Shown here in pieces: positions 6,001 through 37,469 of a DNA stretch of 64,000 bases. The stretch's first letter is position 1, and each line of letters begins with the position of its first letter. Origin of the DNA: a virus. The notes beneath the pieces were generated by a model that was not told where the DNA came from, made no database searches, and saw nothing but the letters and a program-made list of their open reading frames with translations. The translations under genes were made by a program, and so were the position numbers. The stretch is from positions 48,135-112,134 of the IMG/VR virus record IMGVR_UViG_3300025120_000001; one strand, written 5' to 3'.

Positions 6001-9000
6001 CTGACTAACTTTTCTAGATCCTACTAGTTTTACTCTGTTAAACGTTGCTTTATCTCCTTTCTTCTTTACAAACTTCTTTTTCTTTTTTATTTCCTTGACT
6101 TCACCTATTGACATTTCTAGGTTAGTTGATTCACCTTCAGCAAAGAACCCCATAGATGTTGCCCCTTGTTCATCTTTGATAAATATTTTTTGAGTTCCAG
6201 CTCTAAGTCTAGCAACGGTTGCTTCAGTATCTAGCAATCTTCCAGTTTCAAGCTGCGTAGAAGGGCTATCTTTTGGACTTAATACAAGCTTGTTGTTAGT
6301 AAATTTAAAAGCTCTATTGTATCCAATAATCTTACCGCTCTTGTCTCTTATTTCTACTTGTCTATTCTGACCATCTTTAGTAGCATTATACCCAGGATGA
6401 AGCTCTTCAGTTCTGGTAGCAGGATCTAACTCTCTTTGAATCCTTGCAAATTCCCCTTCAATATTTTTTTCATATGCATCTAATGCTGCATCAGTAACTT
6501 CAGCATCACCTTGAGCATTAGTCTTAACCGCTTGTATGATAGGTAATTCAACCATATCCCCTGTGTTAGATGCTTCTATTACTCTTAGTAATACAGGAGC
6601 CAATGCTATCATTTCATCTTGACCTTCTGGGATAACCCCTCTTTTAATTTTACCGGACTTAGGATTAACCCCTGCCGTATAAGCACTTAATAAAGCATGT
6701 AAAATTTGTTTAGGGTTAAAGTCACCGTAGTTTACACCTTCTTCATTTCTATCATATTTTTCAACAACCCCACCATCTCCGTCTACTTCAATTCCTCTAC
6801 TAGCCTTACTACCTGCTATTCTTGTTACTTTCAATAAACCTTCTCTAGACATTTGCCTAAATGCCGGGTCATTTAATAAATAATTACTAGCAAGGTATGG
6901 ATCTTTGTCAATGAGATCTTGAAGAGCCTTAGCGTTATTATCTACATCATTTAATTGAGCTATTCTTTTTAAATGGAATGTGGGTAATTGATGAGCATAA
7001 ACTAAATCTCCAGCTGGGTTTTTAAAGACCGAAGAACCAACTGTTTCATCAAACATTGAGTTACCTAAACCAAGTTTACGCAATCTATTGTAAACACCTT
7101 CTTCTCCAGTTTGAGACATTAGATTTTCATTTGCATCAAATTGTTCTTTCATGTAAACAATATCATCCCACTCAATGCTTATTACATCTGTTCTAGAATT
7201 TAAAATTTGTTGTTGCCATTTTGTTGGGCCTAATCTTTTCTTTCCTTTAGCTGCTGTTTCTTTTTGCAACTTAGTAGGTTGTACTATATTACCTGCAATG
7301 CTATATTGTATGTAATCAGGGTGTAGCTTAATACCCATAGTTTTAGATAACACCTCTGAAACTTTTACAGCAACTTCAGCTAATTTTTTATTTGATATAT
7401 AACCAATTGGATCTTTTGGATTTAAGTAATCTAATAATACATCAAGCTGGTCTGATGCGTCATCTTTCAATGCCGGATCTGATAAATACAATCTTCTTCT
7501 ATGTTTATATTCAGTTTCCCATTTTTCAACTTGAGTATGTGCATCATCTCTATTAGCAGCAGAGTAAGCTAAAGTTTGACCGTCTGCTGTATTAGTGTGT
7601 AAGAATAAATAATCAACTTTAAAGTTTTCAAAACCTTTAAGTAGCGCCTGAAATAATAAATTGTCATTAGTTTCTCCTGGAATTATTCCATTTTCTAATT
7701 GATCTTCCCATACTAAACCTAAATCATTAAATAGTTTTTCTTGAACTGCTTTAGTTTGAGGATTATTTTGAGAGAACATATAGATTTGCTGTAATATTCT
7801 TACGGGATCTGATGTACCACTAGCAGCTTTTAAGAATCCTGAATATGCAGAAGCAAAATCTACAGGAATAATAATTTTTATTCTATCATCCGGATCCGCC
7901 TCTGGGTTAATATATTCATTGCCAAATTCATCTTTTTCAGATAGTGTAGTTGTAGCTATATACTTTCTTAGGAATGATGATAATGATCTAGTACCTCCTA
8001 CTTGAGACGCATCTTTTCCATACTGCTCAGTAGTTCTAAGACCATACTCCATTTCGTTCTCCATGTCAAGATCATCCATCATCTCTAACTTAATGTCATA
8101 TAGCTCAAGTTCTTGAACAACTGAATCTACTATATCTTTTCTAAAGTTTTCAAATGCATTTGTAATATTTGACAAGTTTAACAATTGCTGCGTTGATACA
8201 TTAGCATACTGAGCATTATCAATATTGTATAAAGCTTTAAATGCATCTATAGATTCCTCAACTGTATCTACAATGTTAAAATTAGGATCTTCATTAAACA
8301 TTTCTAAATCAACAACCCTTGCTGTTATAGCTGAAACTATTCCTCTACCTTGTTTATTAGGTATTGTTTTATATACTTCTTTACCTTTTGCTGGCGTTGA
8401 TGAACTATATCTAAGCAGTTTACTTGCATCCAGCGTAATACCCATAGTAGCTGAATCTGTAAAAGGATTAGATACTGCTTGACTATTCTTAAACTTTCCT
8501 GCACTGATATCTTTATATAAAGCTTGAAGTTGTGTAGCGTTATACTTTCCAAGAACGTTTCTGATCCACTCAAGTATTTTATTAAATAAAGACTTGATGA
8601 AAGAATCTGTTTTTGTTTTAGCTGGACTTTGTTTGAATATTTCAAACTGATCTGCCATATACTCTTCCAAGTACTCTTTCTCAAGACTTTCTTGACTCCA
8701 GTTTCTATATTTATTGATATCACCATTTCTTAATTTTTCTAGCTCTACTTTTAAGCTCTTACCTTCTGATCTTAGTTTAGATAATACTTCTGTTTTGGCC
8801 AGCTTGTAGTAAACATTTTGTTGATCTGAATTTAATAACATTCTAAATACAGCATGGAATGCTTCATGGTATGCGTACTTAGATGTTGCACCTACGTATA
8901 ACTTACCGTTTATTTTTTCATTACCTGCTATTCTACTCATAGCCATAACAAAAGCACCTACTCTTTCTCCTCCAGATTTCATATTGTCTCCTAGAGTTCT

Positions 9001-12000
9001 TATATCTTCTATAGAAATAAAGTCTGGGAGATTAGATGAAGCCCAAGATAAAAATTCATCTATATGTTTTAGATCTTCAAGATTTAAATTGTCTGATATT
9101 TTGTTTGCTGTATTACCTAAATCAGATTCTACTTTAGCTAATTGTTTTTGAAGTTTTATAATTTCTTTATCACTCAATAGCTTTTTCATGATCTCGCTAT
9201 TCTTTAGTTTACCTACTGAGTCTTTTCTTATTTTTACTTGTCTTACTTCTATCTTAGCTAGTAAGTTATTTCTTTCTGCTATTAAAGCCGCTCTATCCTT
9301 TTGAACAGCGCCTGTATCTGAAGTAGCTGCATTAGATGTAGGATTATCTACATTGTACTTTGTTTTAGATAGCAATCTAATAGATGTTCCCATTGGAGAA
9401 CCTAGTATCTCCAACTCTCTAATTGTTAAAGCCTTTTCTCCTTGTTCAGAAAGTTTTTGCGCTAAGTATTCTCTTTGATCTTTACTAAGACCCTGAAAGT
9501 CATTTGATTTTTGTTTATCATATTCTTCTTGACTTAGCTCTTCAATACTTGCAATCTCAGCAGCTGGGCCATCCGAAGCAGTTGGACCATCTTCAGTTTC
9601 AGCTTCTTCACTTGGACTAGTGTTACCATCAGCGCTTGTTGATCTACCTGTGGTAGTCATAGATATTATAGCTGTATTTTTTATGTCTGAAACTTGTACC
9701 CCTTTAATGTTTGCTATTAATTTAGAAGCCCCTCTTACATTTGGAGATATTTGTGTAGTAACAGACTGCTCAATTTCTTCTGTAGTAACATTCTTATCAA
9801 ATGAAATTTTAAATGCATCCTTTTTAAGCTGACCATTTTTTTGAAGATTTTCAAAGAATACTTTTTTCTTTGCAAATGCTTTATCAGTAACATCTATATT
9901 ACTTATGTAATCATTATAGTTAGTTATTAAAGCTTCTATAAATTTTTCTTTATTATCAAACTCAGCATACTCTTGCACTTGTTCAGCTGACATTATAATA
10001 TTATGAGACTGCTTTAATTTTCTATCATAAGCTCTAATAAATACTGAACCATTAGCTCCTACATTAACTTCAAATGTATAGCCAGGTTTACTCGCCATAT
10101 AAAATCCAGGTGAATCCTGTACTTCTCCAGCATTAACTTCTTGATTAAATATAGAATTAAACTTTAGATCTTTAGTTTGCTTTGTCTTCTTACCTTTCTT
10201 TACCTCTACCTCTTGTACATTTTCTTTTAATGTTTCCGCAGATCTTTTTATTAAAGTCTCCGCAAGTGCTGCCGTTCCTTCTGTACTCAAAGAGTCTGAC
10301 TTGATTGGAAAATATGAATATACACCAGAAGAACTTTTTACAACCATCACATATCTAGAAGCATTAGATGCACCGGAATAAAGATTTGGATTTTGAGCAT
10401 TCATTTCCGCTATAATCTTTTTCTTTACTTTAGATCCTTCTCCTCTTTCAGCATTAGTAATAAATCTAGTTGATACAGTACCGTCCTTACCTTTTTTGTT
10501 TTCTAAAACTACTGTTACACCATCAACACCTTGAACATTAAGATCTAATACCGGTTTATCTTTCTTGTCAAACACTAGTTCACCAGGTGTAGTAAAAAAG
10601 TTTACACCACCAATATCTTCTAAAGTTGTTACTAGAGATTCTGAGTCTCCCATTTTTTCTGCAATAGAGTTCATTATTTGAAACTGTATTGCAAAGTTTC
10701 TTTGTATATCGGAAGCTGCAGTTTCAGCAGGTCCTGAATAGTTAAACAAATCTTTTATTTGATCTTTAGTTATAGACAAAGGATTAATAGCCTGGCCATT
10801 TGCATCTGTTAATATCACATCCCCATTTGGTATATACCCAACCATTCCAGTTGCTTTTCCTTCCGCATCCATAGCAATAGGTATCCCAGCTTCTTCAAGT
10901 TTTGCATTTATTCTTTTTGATGTTGAGCTTTTTAATTTTAATCCAATGTTATATGGTGACTTAGTTGTCCTAATAAATGGATTTTTTTCTTTATCCTCAA
11001 ACTTAAGATAGCCCCCTTCTCTATCAAGTATTGCACCACCTTGTTCGTTTTTAGTAACTATAACTTCTAGCTCATTGAGTTCTTTCTCAGTTAGGTTTTT
11101 AAGTATAAAGTCATATCTTCTTCTACCTATCTCTAGAACTTCTTGGTAATTAGTTGTTGCATCGTTTCTATGTGGTATAGCAGCTGTTGCTTCATCCACT
11201 CTTAACTTACTTGCATTTGCTGGTAATTTTGCTTTACCTGCATTAAATACTTCAGGGGTAAACCTTTTTAAGAAGTCTCCTTCTTTTAGTCTTGTTGCTT
11301 TTTTAATACGTTGTTTAGGATCTAAAGTATAAGCCTTGCCTTCTTCTAGAACCAATAAGTTTCCATACTTTTCTACAGTTGGTTTAGTTGATACAACAAC
11401 ATACCATTTTTTAGTTTTTGAGTCTTGAATTCTATCTCCATAGTTTAATGTCTGACCATCAAACTCAAATGAATCCATTGTAGGTACATAGTTAGATAGT
11501 TTAGCTCTAGCACTTTCAGCTTTTCCTTTGCTTGTAAATCCTTCTGCTAATATTGGATCTAAACCAGCAGCCTCATACATAGCCTCATCTAGAATATTCC
11601 CGGCTTTATCAACTAATACATAAAATGAAGTAGCTTCTTCTGTTTCTGGATTGATAACTAATTTTTCTAAAATATCTATAGTAGCGTTAGATGAATCTTT
11701 ACCTTTAGTTTTATCATCCTCTTCAGTTACACCTTGTTCATCCTTTAATTCTGGTAAAAATATCTTTAATGATATTCCAGTTCTACCGGATGATGCCTCT
11801 TTTAATACTTCACCAACAAGATCATTTGTTCTTTGAAGTGACAACCATTCCTTAAATCCTTTATCTGAATTAAAGACTTCCATTTTAGCATCTCCATCTA
11901 GACCTTGTAGAGTTTGAAACCAAACTTTCTTTAATCCATTGTAGCCTCTCATAATATCTTTTGATAAAGACTCCTCTAAGAATTGCTCCCATGTAGGAAT

Positions 12001-15462: not shown

Positions 15463-15479
15463 ACTATATTAAATTAAGA

Positions 15480-18994: not shown

Positions 18995-21900
18995 TTATAT
19001 TCCCATCTTACCTGTATAAAAAGGGGTAGCCCACTTCTTTTTCTTTTTCTCTCCCCCTCGTTTGTTTTGGTAGCCGCCTGCTCCCTGTTGTCTAGCCTGC
19101 GCTTTCCATCTAGCTTCTCTAGGATCACCTTGATAACCTCTAGCATTTGCTTGTTGTACAAGAGATGACATAACATTCGGATCAACATTGCCATCTTTAT
19201 CTGTAAGACCTGCAGCTTTAGCTTGTCTAGCCGCTTCCATATAATCATCCATAAATGCCCATCTATCTCCCTCTGGTTGAGGGTTAAATGCTTTAGATCC
19301 TGATTGACTAATGTCACCTCCAGATAATGGATCAACATTAAAGTAATCATACATCTGATTCATGTTATATGTATTTGAAGCATTTGTTATCATATTAGCC
19401 GTAGCATCAGCATACTGCTCTCTATCAAAGTTCTTCTCATCCATATAAGTTTGAAGAGTTTTGGCAGTATCATCATATAACTTAGTGTTTCTTGAATCTT
19501 CAAGCTGGTTAAACTGACTATCTAATTGAGCATTCATTCTATTTGCATTATTCAAAGTCTGCACATTTCTTGAGTTAACTCCACCAACTGCATTAGCTAT
19601 AGCATCTATAGCTTGCCCTTGACCTTGCGCACTTCTAGCAGCCATTTGCTGAGGTCCTGCAAATGCACCTAATGCTTGTTCTGATGCAGCTCTTCCTGAA
19701 TTGATTGCAGCTATTTGTCTAGTTGGATCTTCCAATACAGCATCCATATAGTTTCTTCTAACTGGAGGTTGATAAGGTAAGAACATATCTCGCTCTCTAT
19801 CTGCAATAGCCTGAGTTTTAATTATATCTTGAATCCAAGGTGACTTAACAGCAGAGGGTGGTGGTAACTCTGTTTCAGGTACTTCTGGTGTCTTTCTTTT
19901 TTCAGTACAAGGACACGGCTCACTGGCTGTTGGTGTTCCCGGTTCTGAACCTTCTGGACATTGCGGACATTCACCACAAGGACATTTACCATTCTCATCT
20001 CTTGGTAGAACCTTACCTTTATCTGGACCATCAGGACAAGGTTGACATGGATATTCAGGCACTGTAGTATTTTCACGTTGTCCTACTGTAGTGTTACCGA
20101 ATGCACCATCTACTGGAGATATATCATATGTAACACCATTATATGTCCATTGATCATCATCTACACCTGATTGAACAAAGTTAAGTAAATCATCTCCTTC
20201 TGCTACATCGTAAACTTGACCCGCTTGATATGCGCCTTGAAACTGTCTTACTCCTGCCTCATCTAGTGCTGTGTATGTCATTTCTGCTAGTTCTTCTGGT
20301 GTAGCATCTGGGTTATCAGCTTTAATTTTAGCATTGATATCTGTAATAGCTTTATTATAATATGAGCTATTTGTACCATCATCCCATCCAGCCTCTTTTA
20401 AATAGTCTTGATCATCTTTATAGAAGTCTTGAATAGCATTAACTTGTCTTTCCCCTCTTATGTAATTTGAGTGAAAGTCTTCTTCAGAAGGTAAGTCTGC
20501 TTCATCAACACCTCGTGCTTTTTGAAGCAACTTATAAGTTTCATATCTCTTAAGTCTTCCTTCCTCATTCTCATCAGAGTTATACCAATCCGTCCAACTA
20601 TCAGTACCACCCATTAATTCGTCACCTGCTTTCCATGAAGGTTCGCCTCCTGATTGCATCATTGTAATACCTTGAGATGCAAACTCCATTTCTCTAGGAG
20701 ATGCTACATTTGGATCAATGCTTCCATTTTGTACACCATCAATAAACATTTGCAGTGCATTTTGTCTATCTCGTACTTCCATACCATCTTGACCATAACC
20801 GCTATATCCAGCAAAGCCTCCGCTAACAGATGCATCACCTTCCATATTTTTATTTATCAATCCTGTGTTTGTATCCCAAACACCTCTTGACATATTAGGA
20901 TCATATGATGTACCCATCATGTTGTCAGCCATAGACATTTTCATCATGTCTTCTTTAGCTTGCTTTCCTTTTACATCTTTAAATCTTTCATTAATACCAC
21001 CAGCAAGATTAACAGCAAAGTTTGATGTTTCTTTAAATGCATTCATACCAGGACTCTTCATAAAGCCTTGCATTGCCGTATTTAACCTAGTCCCAAGACC
21101 GGGACCTTCTTTTTCTTTTTCTGGATCCGTCATACTACCTTGGCCATCATATATAGAAGGTGCAGCTGTTTGTTCAGTAGCAAGCTTTTGCATTTTTTGT
21201 TGATAAGGTGTAGGGCCCATTGCTGGATTTGCGTTTTGCATCTGCGCATCCGCAACTATATTCTGACTGCTAGCATAATCATTATTTATTAACTCATTAA
21301 AATATGCTGAACCAGGACCTTGCTGTTGTTTAAATACATTCAGCAATTGTGTAGGATCTCCTAACCCAGTTTGTGCTTTAGCTAATTCTCTACCATATGC
21401 AGCCATTGGATTCATAGCTTGTGTGTCAGCTTGATTCATTGGTTGTGCTTGCTGATCTCCAGTAAACTGTTGAAGACCTTCTACTTTTTGAGCAAACTCA
21501 AAAGGATCAATACCTATAGCCTGTACATAAGGATAAGCAGCTAATGGTAATCCATCCTCAAAACCTTTCATCATTTCTTGACCAAATGCTAGTTTAGATA
21601 AACCTTCCTTGTTTTTTTGCAACATAAGATCTGCTGTATCAGCCTGTATCTTATCCGCATATTCATCATTTAATAAACCATAATACTTATTAAGCTCATA
21701 TTGTTTAGAAACCTTAGCTGGTGTTATCTTCTTTCTAGACTTAATGCCATGATCCGCTAACATCTCCTTACCCATCTTCATTTTTTGGGTATCAGAATAT
21801 ATAAAAGATTGTTCTGGCAAGAACATTGGAACACCACCGCTCCCATGTCTAGGACCGCTAATATCATAAAGACCAAACTGACCGTCATTATTTAAATCAG

Positions 21901-22159
21901 TTAGAACAGTCTCTCCACCTTCAGCTTCAATGTTAGCAATATCTCTTGGTACAGAAGATAGACTATATCTTACATCTGTATCTGAAGGACCCGATGCTTC
22001 ATTTGAATGAGAGTTAAATGTTGTCAATCCATAATTTTGTTGGTCGCCTGTAACATGACCACCATGTGACATCTTAACCAATTCACCATCAATCAATTCA
22101 AAACCTTCAGGTAGATTTTCTATACGAACTTTATATTTAGTATTTTTAATTTTTGGCAT
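18995..22159 (-). CDS. Virion cargo protein with EAEGGE...GPRHGSGG...FIYSD domain, several QxGG-type motifs and a Cys/Pro-rich segment
   Basis: ORF track 18995..22183 starts at GTG; the ATG at 22159 (MPKIKN), directly after the upstream stop, is the more likely start. Position within the cargo cluster. Confidence 0.7.
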   Translation of the reverse strand: MPKIKNTKYKVRIENLPEGFELIDGELVKMSHGGHVTGDQQNYGLTTFNSHSNEASGPSDTDVRYSLSSVPRDIANIEAEGGETVLTDLNNDGQFGLYDISGPRHGSGGVPMFLPEQSFIYSDTQKMKMGKEMLADHGIKSRKKITPAKVSKQYELNKYYGLLNDEYADKIQADTADLMLQKNKEGLSKLAFGQEMMKGFEDGLPLAAYPYVQAIGIDPFEFAQKVEGLQQFTGDQQAQPMNQADTQAMNPMAAYGRELAKAQTGLGDPTQLLNVFKQQQGPGSAYFNELINNDYASSQNIVADAQMQNANPAMGPTPYQQKMQKLATEQTAAPSIYDGQGSMTDPEKEKEGPGLGTRLNTAMQGFMKSPGMNAFKETSNFAVNLAGGINERFKDVKGKQAKEDMMKMSMADNMMGTSYDPNMSRGVWDTNTGLINKNMEGDASVSGGFAGYSGYGQDGMEVRDRQNALQMFIDGVQNGSIDPNVASPREMEFASQGITMMQSGGEPSWKAGDELMGGTDSWTDWYNSDENEEGRLKRYETYKLLQKARGVDEADLPSEEDFHSNYIRGERQVNAIQDFYKDDQDYLKEAGWDDGTNSSYYNKAITDINAKIKADNPDATPEELAEMTYTALDEAGVRQFQGAYQAGQVYDVAEGDDLLNFVQSGVDDDQWTYNGVTYDISPVDGAFGNTTVGQRENTTVPEYPCQPCPDGPDKGKVLPRDENGKCPCGECPQCPEGSEPGTPTASEPCPCTEKRKTPEVPETELPPPSAVKSPWIQDIIKTQAIADRERDMFLPYQPPVRRNYMDAVLEDPTRQIAAINSGRAASEQALGAFAGPQQMAARSAQGQGQAIDAIANAVGGVNSRNVQTLNNANRMNAQLDSQFNQLEDSRNTKLYDDTAKTLQTYMDEKNFDREQYADATANMITNASNTYNMNQMYDYFNVDPLSGGDISQSGSKAFNPQPEGDRWAFMDDYMEAARQAKAAGLTDKDGNVDPNVMSSLVQQANARGYQGDPREARWKAQARQQGAGGYQNKRGGEKKKKKWATPFYTGKMGI

Positions 22160-22160
22160 A

Positions 22161-25100
22161 TTATAATATTTTAACGCTGCCACCAGCAGCCATTATTTTT
22201 GCAATTTGCTCTGTAGATAATTCTACTGAATCCATATCATGAGGGCTTGCCTTTTTATAAGATCTAGCTTTAGGGCTTGCCTCTTGTATCTCTTGTAGTA
22301 ATTGTTGTAAATATTCTTTCATCTGCATAAGCTGTTCAGGATTCATGGCTTGTTGCATCATTTGAGCCTGACCTTGAGGATCCATCATTTGTTGTGCTAA
22401 ATCATTCATGTATTGCATCTCCATCATTCTAGGATCACTAGGTTGCATGTTAGGTTGCATTTGACGTGGTTGTTCCGATTGATTTATCATACCACCCATT
22501 TGTTTAAACATTGCATCATACTCAGCTTGAATAGCATCTCTTTCTTGCTCTAATCTTGGTGTAGCTCCTACATATCTCATTACACCTGAGTCATCCGTAT
22601 AGTAATTATCTTCGCCTGTTCTCATTGGATCACCTTCAAAGTTTCTTGACTTATATCCGTCATATACACCTCCTGGATTATTATATAAATCTAAAACCTC
22701 ATCATCCCCATAACCTGCAGATATTACACTATGCTGTGAGCCACTAGATGCACCACCTGGTTGATTATACATATGACCTCTAATTAGATCTCCTTCTTGT
22801 GTTGGCATAGTCCCTTTAGGTTGAAGTTCAAATCCCATTTGCTCAGCGTAAGAATTAAATTGAGCATTTCCTGGTATCATAGGAATCTTATCACCAGGAC
22901 CATATGTTCTACCATTTACCGTAAACTCTTCCTGACCTTCAGGAATTGTAACTCCAGCATCTCTCATTATTTGACAGGAATATGTATTACAAGCAAAGCC
23001 CGTATTATCTACCCATTTTGCTAAGTTATCAGATATTCCAGCTTGTGAAGCGGATGCATTAGCATCTCCAAGTTCTCTAGCTCTTGCTGATACAGCTCCT
23101 CTAACATCTGTTACTCTAGACATCTCTGTATCATATGCAGCATTGGCAGCATTAAGTCTTTCTTGCATTGCTAGTTGTTCTGGAGTTAACTCTGGAACTA
23201 CAGTTTCTTCACCACCCTCTTGACGCATTTTTGTACCTAGTCTTGAAAACTGAGTAGGTTTATTTCTAACCAATTTATCTTTACTCCAATTCCAAGGTTG
23301 TATGTTATGACCAAACTTACTTAACTTAGTAAAAGTATGATCTGGTCTACGCTCTCTTCCGTGAGGTTTATTACCACCTCTTTCAATTCTTTTTGCTTGT
23401 CTTTCATTCTTGCGAAAATCTCTATCTCCCTGTCTTTCTTCTGGACTTCTTTTAAATATACCCGGGCTACTATTTCTAACTCTACTTCCATCATCTACAG
23501 GACCTAATCCAGAACCTCCTCCAGGTCTTGGACCAGTTGCGCCTGCAGTAGCACCTTGTTGACTTAACATGCTCTGTTTAACCATATCTAAACCATCATT
23601 TAAAAACTGTCTTTGTGATGGACTAGCATTTGTTATTTTTGATTTTGCTTCATCTGTATTAAAAATTGAAGGTTCTCTTTCGCCACCCTCTTGAGCAAAA
23701 GGAAGACCAAATCCTCCACCCATTTGCATAGGCGGCATTGTCCCAACACCTTCTTGCATGATCTCTGGACTTGGGCCTTTCATCTGTCTTTGCATTTGCA
23801 TCATCAGTTGATCCATCTGCATTTTATGTTGCTGTTGCATCCTTCTAATGACATCCTCATACTGTCTAACTATAGCTTCTTGATTTTGAACATGACCCAT
23901 TTCAGGTTTACTATTTCCTATTATTTCTGCCACTATCTCTTTTCCATTCTGACCTTTCTGAATTCCGTTCATTATTTTTTGTTGAACCGCAGGAGGAAGG
24001 GCATTGAAACCCGGGTTATTATAGGAACCACCATTCTTGTAATTTTGCATCATCATATTATTTAAATTTTCTTGACTATCTTCGGGTAACTCTGCATCTT
24101 TATCATAGTAACCTACACCACCTTTGGAATCCATTCCAAATTGCATACCCTTTGGCATATCTTTCTTATCAGTTTCAAACGCTGATCTTTGATCTGCAAC
24201 ATATTGTAGTTGATCTTTTTGATTTTGATCTAATCCGGACATATCACCTTGAAGTTGATTAAATGATTTATAGCCTTCTTTTTCATAATCAAACGGTTTG
24301 TTAAGTAATTCACCTGTATTAACCTTCTCACCTTTTTTAAATAGGTTGCTGTATTTTTTCTTTTTAATATTTGATTGATATCTAGGATCGTTATAAGCTG
24401 TTTGGTAATTTCCAGTTTCTGCATCATACTTCATCATAAGTTTATCACCGGCATTCTTCATAAGACCTTTTGGTGTCTTGCCTTTCATAACAGCCATGGT
24501 ATCCTTATGTCTATTACGTTTTGCCTTCATATCTCTAAAAGCACCATCTCCTAAACCATCTCCGTCTTTATCCTTACCACCAAATAATCTACCAGCGCCT
24601 TCCGCAACAGTAGCAAGTAAGTTTACGTTCTTACCTTTCATACCAAGATTCATTGGCATGTATGCACTATTTATATTACCTCTAACACTATCATCTATTT
24701 GATTATAGTTTAAAGCATTATTAATACCCATTCCATACTGAGCTTGATTTAAAATCTCTCCATATCTACTAGGTTCTCCGCCTTCTTGAAAGTTATACCA
24801 TTTTCCCGTATTGTAGTTTGGATCTCCACCAAAAACACTATTTAACCCATTAAGAAGCCCATCAGCTTTTTGGTATCTAGTTCCAGCATCTTGAGCTGTA
24901 TTTTTAATCCATCTACCACTTTTGTAGACCGCAGATACACCATCAATAATTTTTGTTGCGCCCTCATGCGCTATCATTCCTAAAGCTAAATCAACTGCTT
25001 TTGCATCGTTTGGATCAATCATCCAATCTGGTGTAATTTTATCTGTAATTCCGGAACCTGCTATTGCTGGAGCTAAACCACTTGCCATGTCTTTTACTCC

Positions 25101-26528
25101 CTGCGTTCTACCTTTATATTCTGAACCCCCAACTTTAGATCTACCTTTATAATTTTGTGCAAGAGTATTGAAAACCATATCAGGATCTGTTAGTGCACCA
25201 TCACCACCTTTACCAATACCAAATTTTGACGCTATATCAGCAAGACCTACTACTCCCGTAGTCTGACCAACGTTCTTATCATCAACACCATAGGCTCTAC
25301 ACACACCATCAGCACAATTGTTATCTCCAAAATGATAGTCTTTTGCTGACTCTGATGCTGTAGTATTTAAGAAGTTTGCAAGTTCATTTGAGTTTAATTG
25401 TATATCTAATGTTCTTGCATTAGATCCTTTGAGAAATGCATCCATTATCCCTTTATTCTCATAATGTTGTGCATACCTACTTCCTTTTCCAGCATTGTCA
25501 TCTCCCCCGCTATCATTTTTCATAGCATAGGCCTGACCTCTTTCTTCCCATCTATTGACTAGGGCATCTTGAACTTTATCATCATTATCTCTATACTGCA
25601 ATACAGGATTGCCATTAGGATCAATCAATATAGTTTCAATATGACCAGGAGGCATATTCAAATATTCATAGTTTGTACCTTTTGGATACGCTACAACTTT
25701 TGTTGTATACCCGCTGCCTTCTTTTATAATATCCTGATAACTAGGAATAGTCTCAGAAGCTACAACATCTTGTGAGCTTCTTGCTGCTCTTTCCTTATCA
25801 GCCTTATCTTTTAAGTACTTTGCTTTTTGATTATTATCCCAAGCCTTTTGTTCTTCTGTGCCTTCCCACTCATCAACGTTATCTCCAAACACGTCAGCTC
25901 TAGCAGATTTCAACGGTACTTCATTTCCAGATTTCTGCAAGTCTCTCCACTTTGTGCCTTTGGCTGACTTTGTAAAATAAGTCATTTCCCCTGTTCTAGG
26001 ATCTGTAATCTTTTTATAGTGATAGCCATCACCTCTATCTGTAATTATATCTTCAATTGGAGCTGAATAATCTAAGTCATCAACTTCTGCACCATCTTGC
26101 GCTATTGGAGTTTGGCTTGGCTGACCTTCCCTGACCATATCTACAGGTGGTCTTTTAATTTGACCTTCTGCAGGTTCTCCTTGAGTAGGTTGTATCGGAC
26201 CTTCTGGTGCTGGAGCTGTTTGTTGTTCTTGCAATTCATTCATTGCACCCATTATCTCTTGTTCACTTAATCCAGCAGATACAAGACCTTGCTGAATTGC
26301 TTCCATTGGAACCTCATTCTGAGCTAAGGTCATAATTAATTGAGCCAAGGGCATTCCTTGTTCTATTGCTGATTTAATCGCAGGTACTAATTGTTCCATT
26401 GGATCATTGGCGGAAGCCGGCATTTGATCCTGTCCTTGTGGTTGCATCTGAGGTTCTCCTCCTGTTTGCATGAAGTCTCTCATTTTTTTGCTATGCAAAC
26501 TTCTATTGTTTAGATTTGAATTGTGCAT
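22161..26528 (-). CDS. Modular cargo polyprotein (1455 aa): permuted papain-like domain, NlpC/P60-like domain, Q/M-rich linkers, about 10 GG-type motifs
   Basis: GHIE...YHFGDNNCADG; ACNTYSC...GDLI...QHSVI; repeated MQTGGE, FQEGGE, AQEGGE, RQEGGE. Confidence 0.7.
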   Translation of the reverse strand: MHNSNLNNRSLHSKKMRDFMQTGGEPQMQPQGQDQMPASANDPMEQLVPAIKSAIEQGMPLAQLIMTLAQNEVPMEAIQQGLVSAGLSEQEIMGAMNELQEQQTAPAPEGPIQPTQGEPAEGQIKRPPVDMVREGQPSQTPIAQDGAEVDDLDYSAPIEDIITDRGDGYHYKKITDPRTGEMTYFTKSAKGTKWRDLQKSGNEVPLKSARADVFGDNVDEWEGTEEQKAWDNNQKAKYLKDKADKERAARSSQDVVASETIPSYQDIIKEGSGYTTKVVAYPKGTNYEYLNMPPGHIETILIDPNGNPVLQYRDNDDKVQDALVNRWEERGQAYAMKNDSGGDDNAGKGSRYAQHYENKGIMDAFLKGSNARTLDIQLNSNELANFLNTTASESAKDYHFGDNNCADGVCRAYGVDDKNVGQTTGVVGLADIASKFGIGKGGDGALTDPDMVFNTLAQNYKGRSKVGGSEYKGRTQGVKDMASGLAPAIAGSGITDKITPDWMIDPNDAKAVDLALGMIAHEGATKIIDGVSAVYKSGRWIKNTAQDAGTRYQKADGLLNGLNSVFGGDPNYNTGKWYNFQEGGEPSRYGEILNQAQYGMGINNALNYNQIDDSVRGNINSAYMPMNLGMKGKNVNLLATVAEGAGRLFGGKDKDGDGLGDGAFRDMKAKRNRHKDTMAVMKGKTPKGLMKNAGDKLMMKYDAETGNYQTAYNDPRYQSNIKKKKYSNLFKKGEKVNTGELLNKPFDYEKEGYKSFNQLQGDMSGLDQNQKDQLQYVADQRSAFETDKKDMPKGMQFGMDSKGGVGYYDKDAELPEDSQENLNNMMMQNYKNGGSYNNPGFNALPPAVQQKIMNGIQKGQNGKEIVAEIIGNSKPEMGHVQNQEAIVRQYEDVIRRMQQQHKMQMDQLMMQMQRQMKGPSPEIMQEGVGTMPPMQMGGGFGLPFAQEGGEREPSIFNTDEAKSKITNASPSQRQFLNDGLDMVKQSMLSQQGATAGATGPRPGGGSGLGPVDDGSRVRNSSPGIFKRSPEERQGDRDFRKNERQAKRIERGGNKPHGRERRPDHTFTKLSKFGHNIQPWNWSKDKLVRNKPTQFSRLGTKMRQEGGEETVVPELTPEQLAMQERLNAANAAYDTEMSRVTDVRGAVSARARELGDANASASQAGISDNLAKWVDNTGFACNTYSCQIMRDAGVTIPEGQEEFTVNGRTYGPGDKIPMIPGNAQFNSYAEQMGFELQPKGTMPTQEGDLIRGHMYNQPGGASSGSQHSVISAGYGDDEVLDLYNNPGGVYDGYKSRNFEGDPMRTGEDNYYTDDSGVMRYVGATPRLEQERDAIQAEYDAMFKQMGGMINQSEQPRQMQPNMQPSDPRMMEMQYMNDLAQQMMDPQGQAQMMQQAMNPEQLMQMKEYLQQLLQEIQEASPKARSYKKASPHDMDSVELSTEQIAKIMAAGGSVKIL

Positions 26529-26550
26529 TTTTTAATTTATTGGATACAAT

Positions 26551-26563
26551 TATAATATACGAA
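26551..26563 (-). promoter_or_regulatory. Putative late promoter TTCGTATATTATA
   Basis: Recurring motif 22 nt upstream of 26528. Confidence 0.55.
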
Positions 26564-26591
26564 TAATTGGTAACATTTACTAATTTAGGGT

Positions 26592-29159
26592 TTAAGATAT
26601 CATTGTAGTCATTATGTAATTAGAAGGGTGCATGTTATTTACCTTAGCCTCTCTATAATAAACTCTATTAAGTTTATCATAGTTTTTCTGTGCTTTCTGA
26701 CTTTCATCTTTACCTACTACATAATCTTTATACAAACCTAATTCTGGAGAAAGTTTAGGTCCTCCTATTTTAAACTTACGTGGTACATTCTCATTATATG
26801 TATCATATAGCTGGGTTTGCATTTTTAATAATTGAGCTGGCTGTAATTGAAAAGCATCTAGATTTGATAATTCTTCTTCTAAAAATTGTTGCTTAGCTTC
26901 AATGTCTTTAGGTGTTATCTCTCCGCCTGATTGTTTTTTAATTAGATCCATCCAGCCTTTAATGTTTTTAACATAACCGGCTCCTCCTTGAGCATCCCCA
27001 GATGTTAAAGAATAAGGTGAGTTCCAATTATAAATAAAAGCATCTATAGGACTAAGATCTGCATTACCTGCAGTTGCTTTATCTATAACAATTTGCTCTT
27101 CTCCATCTTCATCTTTTTCATAACGTGCTGTATATCTACCCGGCCAACCCTCTTCTTCAGCAGCAGCATCAAGGTTTTTCTGAATTTCTTCTAGACTATC
27201 CATAGATCCTAGACCTAAAAAATTAATTCCAGTAAAAAGATCTACATTTACTCCACCATCAGTTTCAAACTCTTTGCCATCATATTTAATGTCACTCTTC
27301 CAGTCTTTAGCTTTACCTTTCCAAGTTGGCGGACGGTAAGTTCTTACACCTTGTTTTCCTTTACCTTTCTTTAAATTCTTTTGAGCTGCTAAATAATTTC
27401 TTGATCCATAAATCATAGAAGCAATGGCAGATTTATCAGAATCTTTTAAATCTGATTGTTGAGTGATGCCGTATTTTTTAGCCAGCTTCATTAATTGTTT
27501 ATCTTCTGAAATGTTACTCCACATCAATTGCGTTAATCCAGAACTATCTTGACCTAATGTTCCCGGTAAAGCTTGCTCAATATTATGTTGATAGCCTCCA
27601 CCACCTTCTGTTTCTTGCATTGAAATACCTATAAGGGCAGCGGACATTTCATCATACTGATCTTCTCTAATTTTAAGATCTTCCATTAAAGAGAATTTTT
27701 TATCTTTTAATGCTTTATAGAAATCTGGGAGTTCATCATCATCCTGAAAATATGATTGATCCATTATAGCATCTAGATTAAGATCTAATTCTTTTGGATC
27801 TTCTCCTGTGTAATAACCCTTTTCTTTTGCCCATTCTAAACCATGTCCTATATGTTCTTTTGGTATAGTGATATTAGATATACCGCCTATTCCATACATA
27901 GTGCTTCCATCAATTGGGACATAATCCCCATAATCATAAACAACAGGAACCCCTCTTTCATCATATCCTACAACTTGAGTACTGTGACCAGAGCTAACCA
28001 TTCCGAGTTTATTATTTTCTCCTTTTTTATCTAAGTATTGATCAAATCCTATTATTGTACCTGGAGTCATATCTTTATATAACTCTTTTAGTTGTTCTTC
28101 AGTTAAGCGGCTTGACTCATTATTTGCCCAATTTTCATCAGTAGTGTTATATAAACTTTTACCCCCTTTGCCAACCATCATGCCGTGTATATCCCAACTA
28201 TCTGCTGTATAATCATATTCAGTTTCTCCATATACATCCCGGCTAAAAGATGGTTGATTCTTAATCCAATTATATGTATTAGATCCTTCACCAAATCTAT
28301 CATCCTCAACATCATTAGTATAATGAACAAACTCATCTGTATTTTTATCATATCCGTAACCCGTTCCAGTATCACTATCTCCAGCAGCCTGTAAACTTTG
28401 TACACCAATATTTTTCTTTAAATTCACTTCATTTAGAAAATCACCACTCGGGTATCTTTGACCAACAAGTTTATCATAAGCATCATATGAACTAGCTAAA
28501 CAACCTTTACCACGAGGATCGCAATAATACTCACCACTTTCACCTTGATTAAGTTTATCAAAATCTGCAGCAGAAATATAAAGATCATTTAAATTACTAA
28601 CTCCTTTTTCTCCACCATCTTGAAAATTATGCTTAAATCCAACGTTAATTCCAAACGTAGGATTTTTTCCTAAATGAGCGCTAGGACTTACGCTAAACTC
28701 ATTGCTTCCTTTTTGATACTTAAGATCTAAACCTAAGTCTAATGATCCATTTCTTGAAGCAAGTTCTTGTAATGGCTTAATGTAAGTACCGTGTATATCT
28801 AAATTTTTAGAATTAATATGACCACTATATCCAAGACTATTACTATCCATGAATGCATTACCGCGACTTTTAATAGAAGGTTCTTCTCTATGAGGGATTT
28901 CCAAAACTACATTGCCGGGAAAATCATATTCAAAACCAGGAAACATTCTTTTTTCATTACCAAACTCATCTAAACCTGTAACTGGAAAGTCTACATCTCT
29001 CATTGTTATTCTTCCTGACGGAATTATATTAAACGGGTTATCTACATCAGGGCTATTTCTTTTATACCCTTCTGTTGAGAAACCTGAGCTATATGTAATT
29101 TCTTCATTTGGTCCACCTGGTAAACCTCTCCTTATTATGTCCTCGTATTTGTTTATCAT
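26592..29159 (-). CDS. Modular cargo protein (855 aa): N-terminal domain, beta-strand module, NlpC/P60-like domain, lysozyme/lytic transglycosylase-like domain
   Basis: GCLASS...PGTIIG...GHSTQVVG...YD; ISMQET...SSGLTQL...YNWN...GYVKNI; boundaries FQDGGE, KQSGGE, FKIGGP. Confidence 0.68.
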   Translation of the reverse strand: MINKYEDIIRRGLPGGPNEEITYSSGFSTEGYKRNSPDVDNPFNIIPSGRITMRDVDFPVTGLDEFGNEKRMFPGFEYDFPGNVVLEIPHREEPSIKSRGNAFMDSNSLGYSGHINSKNLDIHGTYIKPLQELASRNGSLDLGLDLKYQKGSNEFSVSPSAHLGKNPTFGINVGFKHNFQDGGEKGVSNLNDLYISAADFDKLNQGESGEYYCDPRGKGCLASSYDAYDKLVGQRYPSGDFLNEVNLKKNIGVQSLQAAGDSDTGTGYGYDKNTDEFVHYTNDVEDDRFGEGSNTYNWIKNQPSFSRDVYGETEYDYTADSWDIHGMMVGKGGKSLYNTTDENWANNESSRLTEEQLKELYKDMTPGTIIGFDQYLDKKGENNKLGMVSSGHSTQVVGYDERGVPVVYDYGDYVPIDGSTMYGIGGISNITIPKEHIGHGLEWAKEKGYYTGEDPKELDLNLDAIMDQSYFQDDDELPDFYKALKDKKFSLMEDLKIREDQYDEMSAALIGISMQETEGGGGYQHNIEQALPGTLGQDSSGLTQLMWSNISEDKQLMKLAKKYGITQQSDLKDSDKSAIASMIYGSRNYLAAQKNLKKGKGKQGVRTYRPPTWKGKAKDWKSDIKYDGKEFETDGGVNVDLFTGINFLGLGSMDSLEEIQKNLDAAAEEEGWPGRYTARYEKDEDGEEQIVIDKATAGNADLSPIDAFIYNWNSPYSLTSGDAQGGAGYVKNIKGWMDLIKKQSGGEITPKDIEAKQQFLEEELSNLDAFQLQPAQLLKMQTQLYDTYNENVPRKFKIGGPKLSPELGLYKDYVVGKDESQKAQKNYDKLNRVYYREAKVNNMHPSNYIMTTMIS

Positions 29160-35605: not shown

Positions 35606-35607
35606 TT

Positions 35608-36513: not shown

Positions 36514-36523
36514 TACTTATGTT

Positions 36524-36850
36524 TTAGCAATTCCATTTTCTTAAAGCCAAAGCTTTTCTAGTAGGCTTTCCATTAGGTTTTTTCATTGGTCCCTTTACTC
36601 CACTCATTCTTGCACAAAATGATTTTCTTCTTTTAGCTGACTTACTACCCGCTTTTAGTTTAGAAGGTTTGGTAGTTACTGCAGTTTGCAATTTAGATCC
36701 TGGATTCTCTTTCCTGTATGATGCAACACCTTTTGCATTCAAACCCCCTTTAGGATCTTTACCTTCTTTTCTAGTCCAAGCAGCTGTAGAACCGCCCTTC
36801 TTAAACATGCCGGGAACTCTAACACCTTGTGAATTGTATATTGGATTCAT
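36524..36850 (-). CDS. Small basic protein (DUF6321-like) with N-terminal 20-aa tag ending KKGG
   Basis: AAWTRKEGK..KGGLNAKG...RRKSFCARM...LRKWNC resembles a family common in aquatic phages; very Lys/Arg-rich. Confidence 0.8.
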   Translation of the reverse strand: MNPIYNSQGVRVPGMFKKGGSTAAWTRKEGKDPKGGLNAKGVASYRKENPGSKLQTAVTTKPSKLKAGSKSAKRRKSFCARMSGVKGPMKKPNGKPTRKALALRKWNC

Positions 36851-36851
36851 A

Positions 36852-36989
36852 TTATTTCTTTTTAGGTTTGGTGTGACGAAATCCTAGTTTTTTCATACGT
36901 AAATGATCTGCCATTTTTTTAGCCATAGTACCTTTCCCAGTCTTTGGGTTATACATCATGTGTGCTTTAAACTTTTTAGTTGCTGCCAT
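36852..36989 (-). CDS. 45-aa basic protein MAATKKFKAHMMYNPKTGKGTMAKKMADHLRMKKLGFRHTKPKKK (not in ORF track)
   Basis: Hand translation; fills the gap between its neighbours with 1-nt spacers. Confidence 0.75.
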   Translation of the reverse strand: MAATKKFKAHMMYNPKTGKGTMAKKMADHLRMKKLGFRHTKPKKK

Positions 36990-36990
36990 A

Positions 36991-37290
36991 TTATTTTTTT
37001 TTATACATTCCAGGAACTCTTGTTCCTACATTATTATATAACGGCTCACCGCCATAATTTGCTTTTGAAGTTCTATTTCCCATTCCTACTTTTCTTTTCT
37101 TAGCAACTTCTTTTTTCTTATCAACCTGACTCCACGTTTTAGGAGTATTGCCAGAAACTTTTTTACTAGGTCTACATTTCTTAATACCTTTAGTTTTAGA
37201 ACTGCCGCATTCTCTACCATTCTGGTCTGTCCATTTCTCATTAAACCATCGTTTAAGAGCTGCTCCTTTAGCTGTCTTTCTAACCGCCAT
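36991..37290 (-). CDS. Small basic protein (DUF5872-like) with C-terminal tag after NYGG
   Basis: LKRWFNEKW...CG...CRPSKKVS..TPKT; ends ANYGGEPLYNNVGTRVPGMYKKK. Confidence 0.78.
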   Translation of the reverse strand: MAVRKTAKGAALKRWFNEKWTDQNGRECGSSKTKGIKKCRPSKKVSGNTPKTWSQVDKKKEVAKKRKVGMGNRTSKANYGGEPLYNNVGTRVPGMYKKK

Positions 37291-37469
37291 TATTTTCCTG
37301 CTTTCTTTTTTCTACACTTAGCAATCATTCCACTAGCATAAGCGGACGGAAATACTTTATGAGCTTTCTTAGCTGCATAGTAACAAGAATCTTTTTTGGT
37401 TTCTGATGAACCGCCTTTCTTGTACATACCGGGTACTTTAACTCCTACATTATTATACACTGATTCCAT
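37290..37469 (-). CDS. 59-aa basic protein MESVYNNVGVKVPGMYKKGGSSETKKDSCYYAARKAHKVFPSAYASGMIAKCRKKKAGK (not in ORF track)
   Basis: Hand translation; TAATG stop/start overlap with the next gene; carries the shared tag. Confidence 0.8.
   Translation of the reverse strand: MESVYNNVGVKVPGMYKKGGSSETKKDSCYYAAKKAHKVFPSAYASGMIAKCRKKKAGK

Follow-up and report, generated by a model that had tools for sequence, protein, structure and literature searches.

Conserved Gly-Gly seams join and cap swappable modules in three large proteins of a marine crAss-like phage

Three large proteins encoded by a crAss-like phage of a marine lineage are chains of swappable modules that are joined and capped by a short conserved Gly-Gly peptide, referred to here as a seam. 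The proteins are probably packed into the particle and injected. The seam series is real and conserved, it lies at linkers and it marks the points at which modules are exchanged; what the seams do is less certain, and a tentative preference is given to a recognition or docking handle that remains uncut.

The three cargo proteins and their modules

The window is a 64,000-nucleotide stretch that represents the late region of a complete 112-kb phage genome, and all features listed below with coordinates are on its minus strand. The three ORFs (855, 1455 and 1062 aa) are placed between a muzzle-like gene and the virion RNA polymerase (RNAP) genes, which is the slot where crAss001 keeps its cargo proteins. 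The 855-aa protein (P0002; 26592..29159) has a conserved N-terminal carrier domain at residues ~20-90, and its invariant residues tentatively suggest one module resembling Cys/His hydrolases and another resembling transglycosylases; sequence searches against Pfam, NCBIfam and PDB returned no match for either. The 1062-aa protein (length as listed, P0003; 18995..22183) probably starts at Met9 at position 22159 and carries an N-terminal domain conserved in 1718 relatives at the 50% cluster level.

The 1455-aa protein (P0001; 22161..26528) includes two papain-like hydrolase modules. The first, at residues ~270-470 (25119..25721; AF2 pLDDT 80), is a permuted NlpC/P60 (H-box / Asn-Cys) domain in which H296, N404 and C405 are nearly invariant among 41 homologues. 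VIA-align superimposes it onto TseH (6v98; Z 8.5, 142 aligned residues, rmsd 4.0) and YiiX (2if6; Z 7.1), with further matches to MARTX RID, Aichivirus 2A and PLAAT4; an assignment of this His...Asn-Cys domain to the clan CE proteases was ruled out by its permuted NlpC/P60 fold. The second is a CHAP / NlpC-P60-like module at residues ~1112-1345 (22494..23195; pLDDT 87-94) with weak Foldseek matches to the CHAP lysin Ly7917 (probability 0.84), PlyPy and Tae3. The modules of the three ORFs resemble cell-wall hydrolases, and the cargo (ejection) proteins may attack the cell wall.

Enrichment and conservation of the seam motif

The exact sequence Q-x-G-G-E occurs seven times in the 3,372 residues of the three ORFs against an expectation of 0.15, the mean of 2000 composition-preserving shuffles whose highest count was 3, and it is absent from the remaining 32,505 residues of the genome. 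The pattern [FYM][QK].GG is likewise overrepresented (7 observed, 0.59 expected). The loose pattern [QK].GG is significant in the 1455-aa ORF only (9 against 2.46, p=0.002), and not in the 855-aa (3 against 1.2) or 1062-aa ORF (2 against 1.2) when each is taken alone, so that for these two the strict motif and the conservation carry the argument. This lack of significance is what speaks for the series being a product of chance or of composition, in linkers rich in Gly, Gln and Glu. Such an explanation is extremely improbable and may be regarded as refuted: none of the 2000 shuffles exceeded three strict copies, several seams keep an invariant or almost invariant Gly-Gly even in homologues of only ~25-30% identity, and the motif is found again in cargo genes elsewhere, namely in seven related viral contigs, Cellulophaga phage phi17:2 and Leptolyngbya phage Lbo-JY46.

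The seam core reads [M/F/Y/A/K]-[Q/K]-x-G-G-[E/Q/S] and is frequently doubled as ...GG-x-LPxAQxG(G). Across 532 non-redundant contexts the information is restricted to positions -3 to +1 around the Gly-Gly, with a near-invariant Q/K at -2, a hydrophobic or basic residue at -3 and E/Q/S at +1; an excess of basic residues is seen at -3 and -4. The DNA encoding the seams shows no codon conservation, from which it follows that protein-level selection rather than recombination homology maintains them. The papers searched gave no earlier description of the motif. An earlier note on this DNA had counted about 20 motifs, and all 19 sites that it listed were recovered exactly or within a few bases. The sites are real, but they correspond to about 14 seams, since several pairs are halves of composites (FQEGGE with AQYGMG, MQMGGG with AQEGGE, AAYGRE with AQTGLG and probably YKNGGS with GQNGKE). 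Its degenerate members AQDGAE, MSHGGH, AAYGRE, AQTGLG and GQDGME proved justified, as homologues have a canonical site or a conserved seam element at the aligned positions.

Seams as points of module exchange

In the AlphaFold models the canonical sites lie in linkers with pLDDT<50, mostly directly after a helix, that border confidently folded domains, in agreement with the earlier proposal that the motifs sit in linkers at domain edges and divide the proteins into modules. The N-terminal seam of the 855-aa protein, RRGLPGGP (29109..29132), which the earlier note had missed, reads GLPGGPNE in a consensus built from 21 homologues. Further along are FQDGGE (residues 179-184; 28608..28625), whose G182 is invariant in 21 homologues and behind which longer orthologues carry an extra module, KQSGGE (residues 742-747; 26919..26936; [KM]Q[SAVI]GGE in orthologues) and FKIGGP (residues 796-801; 26757..26774; FK[IM]GGP in orthologues).

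The N-terminal seam of the 1455-aa protein, MQTGGE (residues 20-25; 26454..26471), comes after a conserved 19-residue leader, and its Q21, G23 and G24 are nearly invariant among 41 homologues. The degenerate AQDGAE (residues 143-148; 26085..26102) aligns with MMQEGGE in P0013 and P0014 and with FQPGGE in P0049, where a shared module starts. The composite FQEGGE ... AQYGMG (residues 580-601; 24726..24791, with the FQEGGE half at 24774-24791; pLDDT <50) contains the nearly invariant G583 and G584. YKNGGS (residues 830-835, with a possible second half GQNGKE at 859-864; 23937..24041; pLDDT <50) is located after model helix 563-572, and at the same point P0009 carries a 96-aa insertion with KRYGG and KRNGG on either side. 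At the composite MQMGGG ... AQEGGE (residues 934-950; 23679..23729; pLDDT <50) the insertions of P0009 and P0012 are bordered by duplicated PPMQ[MT]GG. RQEGGE (residues 1102-1107; 23208..23225) and KQMGGM (residues 1342-1347; 22488..22505), the latter also overlooked before, form the N- and C-terminal edges of the CHAP-like module. The C-terminal seam MAAGGS (residues 1446-1451; 22176..22193) lies between a conserved helix and the last four residues of the protein; G1449 is invariant and L1437, T1439, I1442, A1443, M1446, A1447 and K1453 are nearly invariant. Two regex matches, KVGGS (residue 465) and NQPGGA (residue 1256), lie inside folded domains and were rejected as seams; neither had been listed previously.

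In the 1062-aa protein the N-terminal seam MSHGGH (residues 38-43; 22055..22072) aligns with KK[SA]HGG, KMQQGG, KQSGG and the like at family residue ~25. The composite AAYGRE ... AQTGLG (residues 261-275; 21359..21403) corresponds to M[RQK][YH]GG-x-LP[KR]AQ-x-G in homologues, the degenerate GQDGME (residues 464-469; 20777..20794) to KYG-x-E[IL]PKAQxG, and MQSGGE (residues 509-514; 20642..20659) to MMQPGGQ in the closest homologue. The C-terminal seam NKRGGE (residues 1040-1045; 19049..19066) is followed by a conserved basic-aromatic tail, the family C-terminus being K[KR]GG-x-K-x-KKWA-x-PFYTGK-x-G.

It is precisely at these seams that carrier proteins gain, lose and exchange modules. The CHAP-like module is present in seven of 12 close homologues and absent from the other five, the break coinciding with both flanking seams, and motif copies border four to five of the six large indels seen between close homologues. 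Insertions bring a duplicate seam copy with them. Two different carrier proteins share one module that lies behind a seam in each, with homology beginning at the seam, and in fused relatives the N-terminal seam (the P0003 Gly-Gly) has turned into an internal junction.

Docking, cleavage or hinge

The resemblance noted earlier between the seams and the tags of small proteins holds: in a 108-aa protein (36524..36850) FKKGGS joins a 15-residue leader to a DUF6321 domain, and a 59-aa protein (37290..37469) has the same leader followed by YKKGGS. The DUF6321 tag is confined to the present phage lineage. Equally, no motif copy was found in the portal, terminase and MCP, as the earlier note had remarked, nor in the scaffold-like and muzzle-like proteins.

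An uncut docking handle is the most likely reading, although it is put forward tentatively. The seam would be a short exposed peptide that sits at both termini and at each internal junction of the mobile cargo modules, marks a few tiny basic late proteins as well and stays uncut in the virion. Its Gly-Gly helix stop would insulate independently folding modules, allowing cassettes to be inserted or removed without damage, and a repeated site within the portal and tail-barrel part of the particle would hold each module, so that the cargo proteins exit first. We infer the binding function, its target and the absence of cutting because the motif is enriched and conserved with its information confined to so few positions, because it lies in low-confidence linkers at which indels and a shared module start, and because N-terminal seams become internal in fused relatives while the DUF6321 tag is lineage-limited. 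Conservation at the termini also exceeds the length of a protease site, with a ~17-residue helix before the last Gly-Gly of the 1455-aa protein and a 17-residue tail after that of the 1062-aa protein, and searches of the complete genome detect no Gly-Gly-specific or prohead protease.

Against docking stand the failure to find a partner for the seams and the lack of the motif in the virion RNAP proteins (5366, 1929 and 1151 aa), packaged as well on the evidence of homology, so that it cannot be a general loading signal. Furthermore, we know of no phage precedent for a repeated internal docking motif, whereas precedents exist for cleavage at short consensus sites of ejected or internal phage proteins.

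The absence of both partner and protease would suit a purely structural role, in which the seams are a helix stop and flexible hinge between modules that is read by nothing, kept since cassettes would travel with their own linker, and perhaps easing unfolding and threading through the tail. The position of Gly-Gly immediately after predicted helices, the duplicate seams of insertions and the unconserved codons are consistent with this role. It is nonetheless unlikely, as it leaves the residues at -3, -2 and +1 unexplained, does not account for motifs close to protein termini, at which a hinge is unnecessary, or for the tag having moved onto unrelated small proteins, and other multidomain virion proteins of the same phage lack the motif.

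crAss001 gp45, whose gene also follows the muzzle gene and precedes the virion RNAP genes, is a large, partly unfolded, ejected cargo protein (Bayfield et al. 2023, PMC10172136; PDB 7QOG and related entries). It contains six copies of a related x-x-G-G motif that bracket the two resolved segments, bound to the rings (214-245) and the portal (425-552; PMC10172136), in support of docking. The model of 425-552 is continuous through A-F-G-G-W at 425-429, which shows that this seam is not cut after the Gly-Gly in the virion; the segment begins two residues before one Gly-Gly and stops 10 residues before the next, edges that would also fit cleavage nearby. The publication mentions neither the motif nor any proteolysis (PMC10172136). 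Unlike the three ORFs, gp45 has the variant A-[F/Y]-G-G instead of [Q/K]-x-G-G-E, contains no recognised enzyme domain and is predicted to have a transmembrane helix, and Pfam and BLASTP detect no sequence homology between them; extending the crAss001 evidence to the present phage is therefore itself inferential. In re-analysed published MALDI peak lists of a crAss001 virion gel nine proteins (gp47, gp49, gp50, gp44, gp20, gp22, gp23, gp25 and gp26) are recovered near full length, whereas gp45 (90.7 kDa, 23 limit peptides) never rose above decoys in bands 1-10 and its full-length form was not detected. This counts against docking and for cleavage, but the motif-free gp46 is also poorly detected, which makes the absence of gp45 weak evidence.

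Cleavage is a possible but doubtful alternative, in which the cargo and small basic proteins would be precursors cut into module-sized pieces, either inside the particle or once injected. The motif is compact, exposed and at linkers, basic residues are enriched before it, it occurs at both ends of tiny basic late proteins as in adenovirus core-protein precursors, and the leader upstream of the Gly-Gly is dispensable and replaced in fused relatives, where the conserved domain begins right after it. The protease would be an unrecognised enzyme or the zincin-like metallopeptidase (HExxH region, 8400..9300) of the 5366-aa virion RNAP fusion, the only recognisable virion-associated candidate; if the zincin cuts, it would more likely do so just before the hydrophobic residue than after the Gly-Gly. 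Processing by zincin-like domains has been proposed (PMC5512222; 10.1101/2020.03.07.982082). No C5, C48, C39, S77, S78, S49 or ClpP family member was nevertheless detected in the complete genome, a scan of the late genes revealed no peptidase, and a cut at MAAGGS, four residues from the C-terminus, is unlikely. The RNAP fusion, the one true polyprotein of the genome, shows the pattern at chance level (5 against 3.4) with its best motif-like copy inside the zincin fold, and the MCP, scaffold-like and portal proteins lack sites. These results speak against the suggestion of a general polyprotein processing code.

Head maturation proteases such as T4 gp21, which recognises the capsid-targeting sequence of internal proteins, and gp175 of phiKZ and 201phi2-1 cut internal or ejected proteins at a short consensus that is repeated on many of them, after N-terminal leaders and between the parts of larger precursors. 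These are dedicated prohead proteases that also cut capsid and scaffold, whereas the present phage has no detectable counterpart, its capsid, scaffold-like and portal proteins are motif-free and any cleavage is putative. Adenain and pS273R cut adenovirus precursors and ASFV pp220/pp62, respectively, at Gly-Gly-X, where a hydrophobic residue precedes Gly-Gly in linkers of core and minor virion precursors and small basic DNA-associated proteins are cut at both ends. The hydrophobic residue is two positions before the first Gly there and three in the present phage, which lacks a clan CE protease (Pfam C5 and C48).

Polyvalent proteins of phages and conjugative elements are large, multidomain and delivered together with DNA (Iyer et al. 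2017, PMC5512222). They differ in that no junction motif has been described for them, the word 'linker' appearing nowhere in that paper, while the three ORFs lack a zincin domain and their modules are not anti-restriction or nucleic-acid enzymes. The likeness lies in the co-delivery of multidomain proteins with DNA, the extensive domain shuffling and the zincin-like processing proposed for them (PMC5512222).

The probable cargo locus and its repeated Gly-Gly signal

CrAss-like phages are among the most abundant gut viruses and are common in the sea. The marine record studied here is a complete virus of 112,134 bp with direct terminal repeats, of which the window comprises bases 48135-112134, and its minus strand carries all late genes. 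Pfam recognises the crassvirus major capsid protein (Crass_capsid, 50230-51849, minus strand) and the tail ring proteins (CrAss_Ring_1 and CrAss_Ring_2, 35608-36513 and 37473-38147, minus strand). Downstream of the rings follow a 2149-aa muzzle-like virion protein and three minus-strand putative cargo ORFs of 855 aa (26592-29159), 1455 aa (22161-26528) and 1062 aa (18995-22183), and beyond these a 1151-aa ORF, a 5366-aa fused virion RNA polymerase (RNAP) protein with a HExxH region and a 1929-aa ORF. The three cargo ORFs thus have the muzzle and ring genes of a crAss-like genome on one side and its virion RNAP genes on the other, the same gene position that is occupied in Bacteroides phage crAss001 by the cargo proteins gp45 (C1) and gp46. 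A Pfam search with the three at E<=0.01 found no family. Judged by its capsid protein, the phage has only remote cultured relatives, the closest being Leptolyngbya phage Lbo-JY46 (29% identity) and the Cellulophaga phages phi17:2 and phi4:1; a tblastn search of cultured phages with the 1455-aa protein gave no match, and the N-terminal domain of the 855-aa protein matches a protein annotated as 'virion structural protein' in both Cellulophaga phages. The GTG start listed for the 1062-aa ORF is probably wrong, as its homologues begin at the position of Met9 (MPKIK..., window 22159-22183, minus strand). Starting at the ATG at 22159-22161, the ORF would overlap the 1455-aa gene, which ends at 22161, by one base (the last of the stop codon) rather than 23.

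An earlier note had proposed that about 20 Gly-Gly motifs divide the three cargo ORFs into modules, as protease sites or as docking motifs. All its coordinates are correct when rechecked on the sequence, and the enrichment on which the idea depends is real: the three ORFs, 3,372 residues in total, contain seven copies of the exact form Q-x-G-G-E against 0.15 expected from composition-preserving shuffles (2000 trials, in which the maximum never exceeded 3), and there is not one copy in the other 32,505 residues of the genome ORF set. We call these sites seams, short exposed peptides with the core [M/F/Y/A/K]-[Q/K]-x-G-G-[E/Q/S] at the module edges and termini of cargo proteins. The looser form [QK]-x-G-G is significant singly in the 1455-aa ORF only, and the case for the 855-aa and 1062-aa ORFs is made by the strict motif together with conservation. 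Among 532 non-redundant Gly-Gly contexts from two cargo families, Q or K stands two residues ahead of the first glycine in 36%, and information is limited to positions -3 to +1 around the Gly-Gly. The note had noticed no comparable series in portal, terminase or capsid protein; the motif is indeed absent or at chance level there, and the same applies to the scaffold-like and muzzle-like proteins. The scaffold-like ORF is a 426-aa acidic, helical-looking product encoded between the portal and capsid genes (51895-53175, minus strand), which has no family match in Pfam or PHROGs. In the three RNAP-associated giants, including the 5366-aa fusion, the seam motif is not above chance, and it therefore cannot be a general capsid-loading signal.

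The seam motif is present in the cargo genes of all seven related viral contigs from which the gene neighbourhoods of homologues were drawn. Cellulophaga phage phi17:2 carries seven copies in gp041 and two in gp042, and cyanophage Lbo-JY46 carries the motif more weakly. Since it is found in the cargo genes of these two phages as well as in the related contigs, the motif tracks the phage lineage rather than the host phylum. The phi17:2 genes lie at 12764-17670 of NC_021798; gp041 is an 895-aa protein annotated as 'virion structural protein', with an N-terminal domain that matches that of the 855-aa ORF. A DNA-level repeat serving recombination was considered and rejected, the codons varying among seams and following ordinary glycine codon usage.

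Conservation of the seams is extensive. Homologues of the 1455-aa protein, 41 in all and with identities reaching down to about 25-30%, show the pattern with a single exception. Q21, G23, G24, G583, G584 and G1449 of this protein are invariant or nearly so, on a par with the putative catalytic residues H296 and C405, and in the 855-aa protein G182 shows no variation across 21 homologues. In the family of the 1062-aa protein (1718 cluster representatives) one seam lies near residue 25 and a second some 20 residues before the C-terminus. The degenerate sites of the note are not over-calls: AQDGAE aligns with canonical sites in two homologues of the 1455-aa protein (P0013 and P0014) and one of the 855-aa protein (P0049), and MSHGGH, AAYGRE, AQTGLG and GQDGME align with conserved elements of the 1062-aa family. 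The alignment of the latter reveals a composite seam, M-[RQK]-[YH]-G-G followed by one residue and L-P-K-A-Q-x-G, so that the 19 sites listed previously stand as positions, but several of them are halves of one junction rather than junctions of their own. That list also lacked KQMGGM (residues 1342-1347 of the 1455-aa protein) and the N-terminal GLPGG of the 855-aa protein.

Folded domains and module exchange

An AlphaFold2 model of residues 256-1455 of the 1455-aa protein, built from the 41-sequence alignment, bears out the expectation that the seams coincide with domain boundaries. All canonical seams have a pLDDT below 50 and edge confident domains, usually directly after a helix. RQEGGE precedes the C-terminal domain (pLDDT 87-94) by about ten residues and KQMGGM lies at the last helix of that domain. 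Two matches to the loose pattern were discarded as seams since they fall inside folded domains: KVGGS at 465, which belongs to a strand modelled at pLDDT >90, and NQPGGA at 1256.

Residues ~270-470 (25119-25721, minus strand), the most conserved part of the 1455-aa protein, are predicted to form a permuted NlpC/P60 domain of the H-box/Asn-Cys kind, judging from the model and from conservation. A second model covering residues 150-480 reaches a pLDDT of 80. The best structural match found with VIA-align is the type VI secretion cell-wall effector TseH (Z 8.5 over 142 residues, rmsd 4.0), and further matches include YiiX (Z 7.1), MARTX RID, Aichivirus 2A (Z 6.2) and PLAAT4 (Z 4.3). H296, N404 and C405 are nearly invariant, giving a conserved histidine followed by a conserved Asn-Cys. 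Domains of this kind occur in TseH, YiiX, the PLAAT enzymes and picornavirus 2A, and the one in the 1455-aa protein may cut peptidoglycan, lipid or protein. The C-terminal domain shows weak matches to CHAP lysins, and with the TseH-like fold this makes the cargo proteins look like envelope-attacking ejection proteins. Sequence and profile searches with the families of the 1455-aa and 855-aa proteins against PDB, Pfam, PHROGs and NCBIfam were uninformative for enzymatic modules, and thus the transglycosylase and Cys/His hydrolase modules of the 855-aa protein are putative.

That modules are gained or lost at the motifs, as had been anticipated, is seen among close homologues of the 1455-aa protein, where a copy of the motif stands on either side of four to five of the six large indels. 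A 240-residue CHAP-like module is present in seven of these homologues and absent from five, and where it is missing its two flanking seams have merged to a single one; duplicated seams bracket the insertions in the homologues P0009 and P0012. An indel-boundary test on the full 41-sequence alignment gave a twofold excess (18% vs 9%) that is unreliable owing to non-independent events and a noisy alignment, and for this reason the close-homologue events are preferred. Modules also move between carriers. Orthologues of the 855-aa protein contain a counterpart of residues 144-269 of the 1455-aa protein (in P0049 at residues 194-326, E 4e-13), and the homology begins at a seam in both proteins. In more distant homologues the similarity to the 855-aa protein is confined to the N-terminal domain of 70 residues, which is followed by SLT, LysM, YkuD or SET domains with one to six seams per protein. 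One of them, P0103, has the same N-terminal carrier domain with a SET methyltransferase domain (PF00856) and a transglycosylase domain, and its SET domain hints that the carriers may also deliver non-muralytic effectors. In fused relatives, with the core domain of the 1062-aa family joined on behind a different protein, the leader is lost and the N-terminal seam sits at the internal junction. The 1455-aa protein thus resembles polyvalent proteins in having at least two unrelated effector domains (the predicted permuted NlpC/P60, the CHAP-like domain and further modules). The embedded zincin-like peptidase expected of polyvalent proteins (Iyer et al. 2017) is missing from the three ORFs; the neighbouring 5366-aa protein has one.

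Cutting, docking or bending at the seam

The seam is a real, exposed and conserved six-residue signal at every module edge that is compatible with three readings. The one tentatively preferred, at somewhat less than even chances, is that it would act as an uncut recognition and insulation element of the cargo modules. In favour of this, conservation at the termini reaches far past the length of a protease site and the only true polyprotein is without sites. A passive hinge is improbable, as it leaves unexplained both the conserved Q/K and the copies next to protein termini. Cleavage is possible though doubtful; phages and large DNA viruses offer good precedents for it, and it fits the replaceable leaders.

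The sole structural datum comes from gp45 of crAss001, which contains six copies of the variant A-[F/Y]-G-G. Its homology to the 1062-aa protein is not detectable by BLASTP (E 0.16). Two stretches of gp45 are resolved in the crAss001 atlas, residues 214-245 at rings R1/R2 and residues 425-552 at the portal wing (PMC10172136). The first segment begins four residues past a seam, and the second starts two residues ahead of G427-G428 and ends ten residues short of G562-G563. Because the model is continuous through A425-F-G-G-W429, this seam is not cut after the Gly-Gly, which supports the uncut reading. Neither the atlas (PMC10172136) nor a 2023 review mentions a protease or cargo processing. The MALDI peak lists of bands 1-10 of the 2018 crAss001 virion gel (PMC6235969), re-analysed after recalibration on trypsin peaks, are accounted for by gp44, gp47+gp50, gp49, gp20, gp26, gp22, gp25 and gp23, each near full size. 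In these bands gp45 (90.7 kDa, 23 limit peptides in range) never rises above shuffled decoys. The missing band fits cleavage and is weak evidence that gp45 is not present full-length at portal-like abundance, gp46 being poorly detected too in the same ten bands.

A protease suited to the seams is not detectable in the genome, which again favours an uncut element. Pfam and PHROGs scans of about 40 late proteins found no peptidase, and Pfam C5, C48, C39, S78, S77, S49 and ClpP searched against the whole genome in six frames gave nothing at E<=1. Maturation systems of the T4 gp21, HK97 and phiKZ type have a prohead protease and sites on capsid and scaffold as well, whereas here S77, S78, S49 and ClpP are all missing and the major capsid protein, the scaffold-like ORF and the portal lack the motif. 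Likewise, unlike systems with a Gly-Gly-specific cysteine protease (adenain C5, Ulp1 C48, bacteriocin C39), this genome has no Pfam C5, C48 or C39. A hidden clan CE (adenain/Ulp1-like) protease in the 1455-aa protein, suspected from its His...Asn-Cys order, was dismissed, the modelled fold being permuted NlpC/P60 and C5/C48 being absent.

The candidate enzymes left are the papain-like modules of the cargo proteins themselves and the zincin-like HEAFH...EEYMAD region (about 8400-9300) of the RNAP protein (1-15462, minus strand). Zincin-like domains have been proposed by others to process such proteins (PMC5512222; 10.1101/2020.03.07.982082). Were a zincin the enzyme, the cut should come ahead of the hydrophobic residue, and the gp45 model, beginning at 425, would agree with this too. 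It is conceivable, if unlikely, that maturation proceeds free of a prohead protease, the packaged zincin acting in the particle or post-injection on the seams of both the wall-attacking cargo and the small basic proteins and cutting each seam just ahead of its hydrophobic residue, and that the capsid and tail pieces of crAss001 C1 are separate fragments. An N-terminal x-[Q/K]-x-G-G tag would in that case stay on each module set free, and the C1 pieces in capsid and tail would not be one chain threaded through the portal. MKSGGE of the 5366-aa protein was not accepted as a junction, its position shortly before HEAFH falling within the presumed zincin fold.

If the seam is a handle, as the uncut reading has it, it would be specific to the proteins that fill the portal and tail lumen and leave first. 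The seam bears on how crAss-like phages load and eject several megadaltons of protein, and touches the published model of one cargo protein spanning capsid and tail. As a conserved portable peptide it offers a direct experimental handle on cargo processing, could act as a tag for loading foreign proteins into these particles, and would make module boundaries predictable in cargo proteins that lack annotation, of which there are thousands. The literature searched yielded no description of the motif; new here are its composite form in this lineage, the occurrence of one module behind a seam in both of two carriers, the assignment of a permuted NlpC/P60 domain, protease searches of the whole genome with a negative outcome, DUF6321 tagging that is specific to the lineage, and the re-analysis of published gel spectra. 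Any likeness of the seam to the Pup/SUMO C-terminus, transglutaminase Q/K tags or sortase signals is conjectural and was given no weight.

Small tagged proteins

The motif is found, too, in small basic late proteins encoded next to the ring genes and next to the holin gene, and those tagged at both ends fit the cleavage reading. A 108-aa protein (36524-36850, minus strand) consists of a leader, FKKGGS and a DUF6321 domain. The same 84-residue domain occurs in thousands of other proteins where no motif precedes it, and among the long DUF6321 forms inspected P0257 alone has a tag ahead of the domain. Beside the holin gene, outside the window at genome positions 33458-37308 (L004:3458-7308), K-[YMF]-x-x-G-G is present seven times in four small K/R-rich late proteins, one of which, 64 aa long, has copies at both ends. 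DUF6321 itself is a very basic small domain that is strongly conserved across many protein contexts. At ~91% identity the 84-residue copy matches the C-terminal domain of thousands of proteins, 190-600 aa long, that otherwise differ from one another, with 7943 at E<=0.001 among 8000 candidates, and a few of the matches listed are fused to a deaminase domain.
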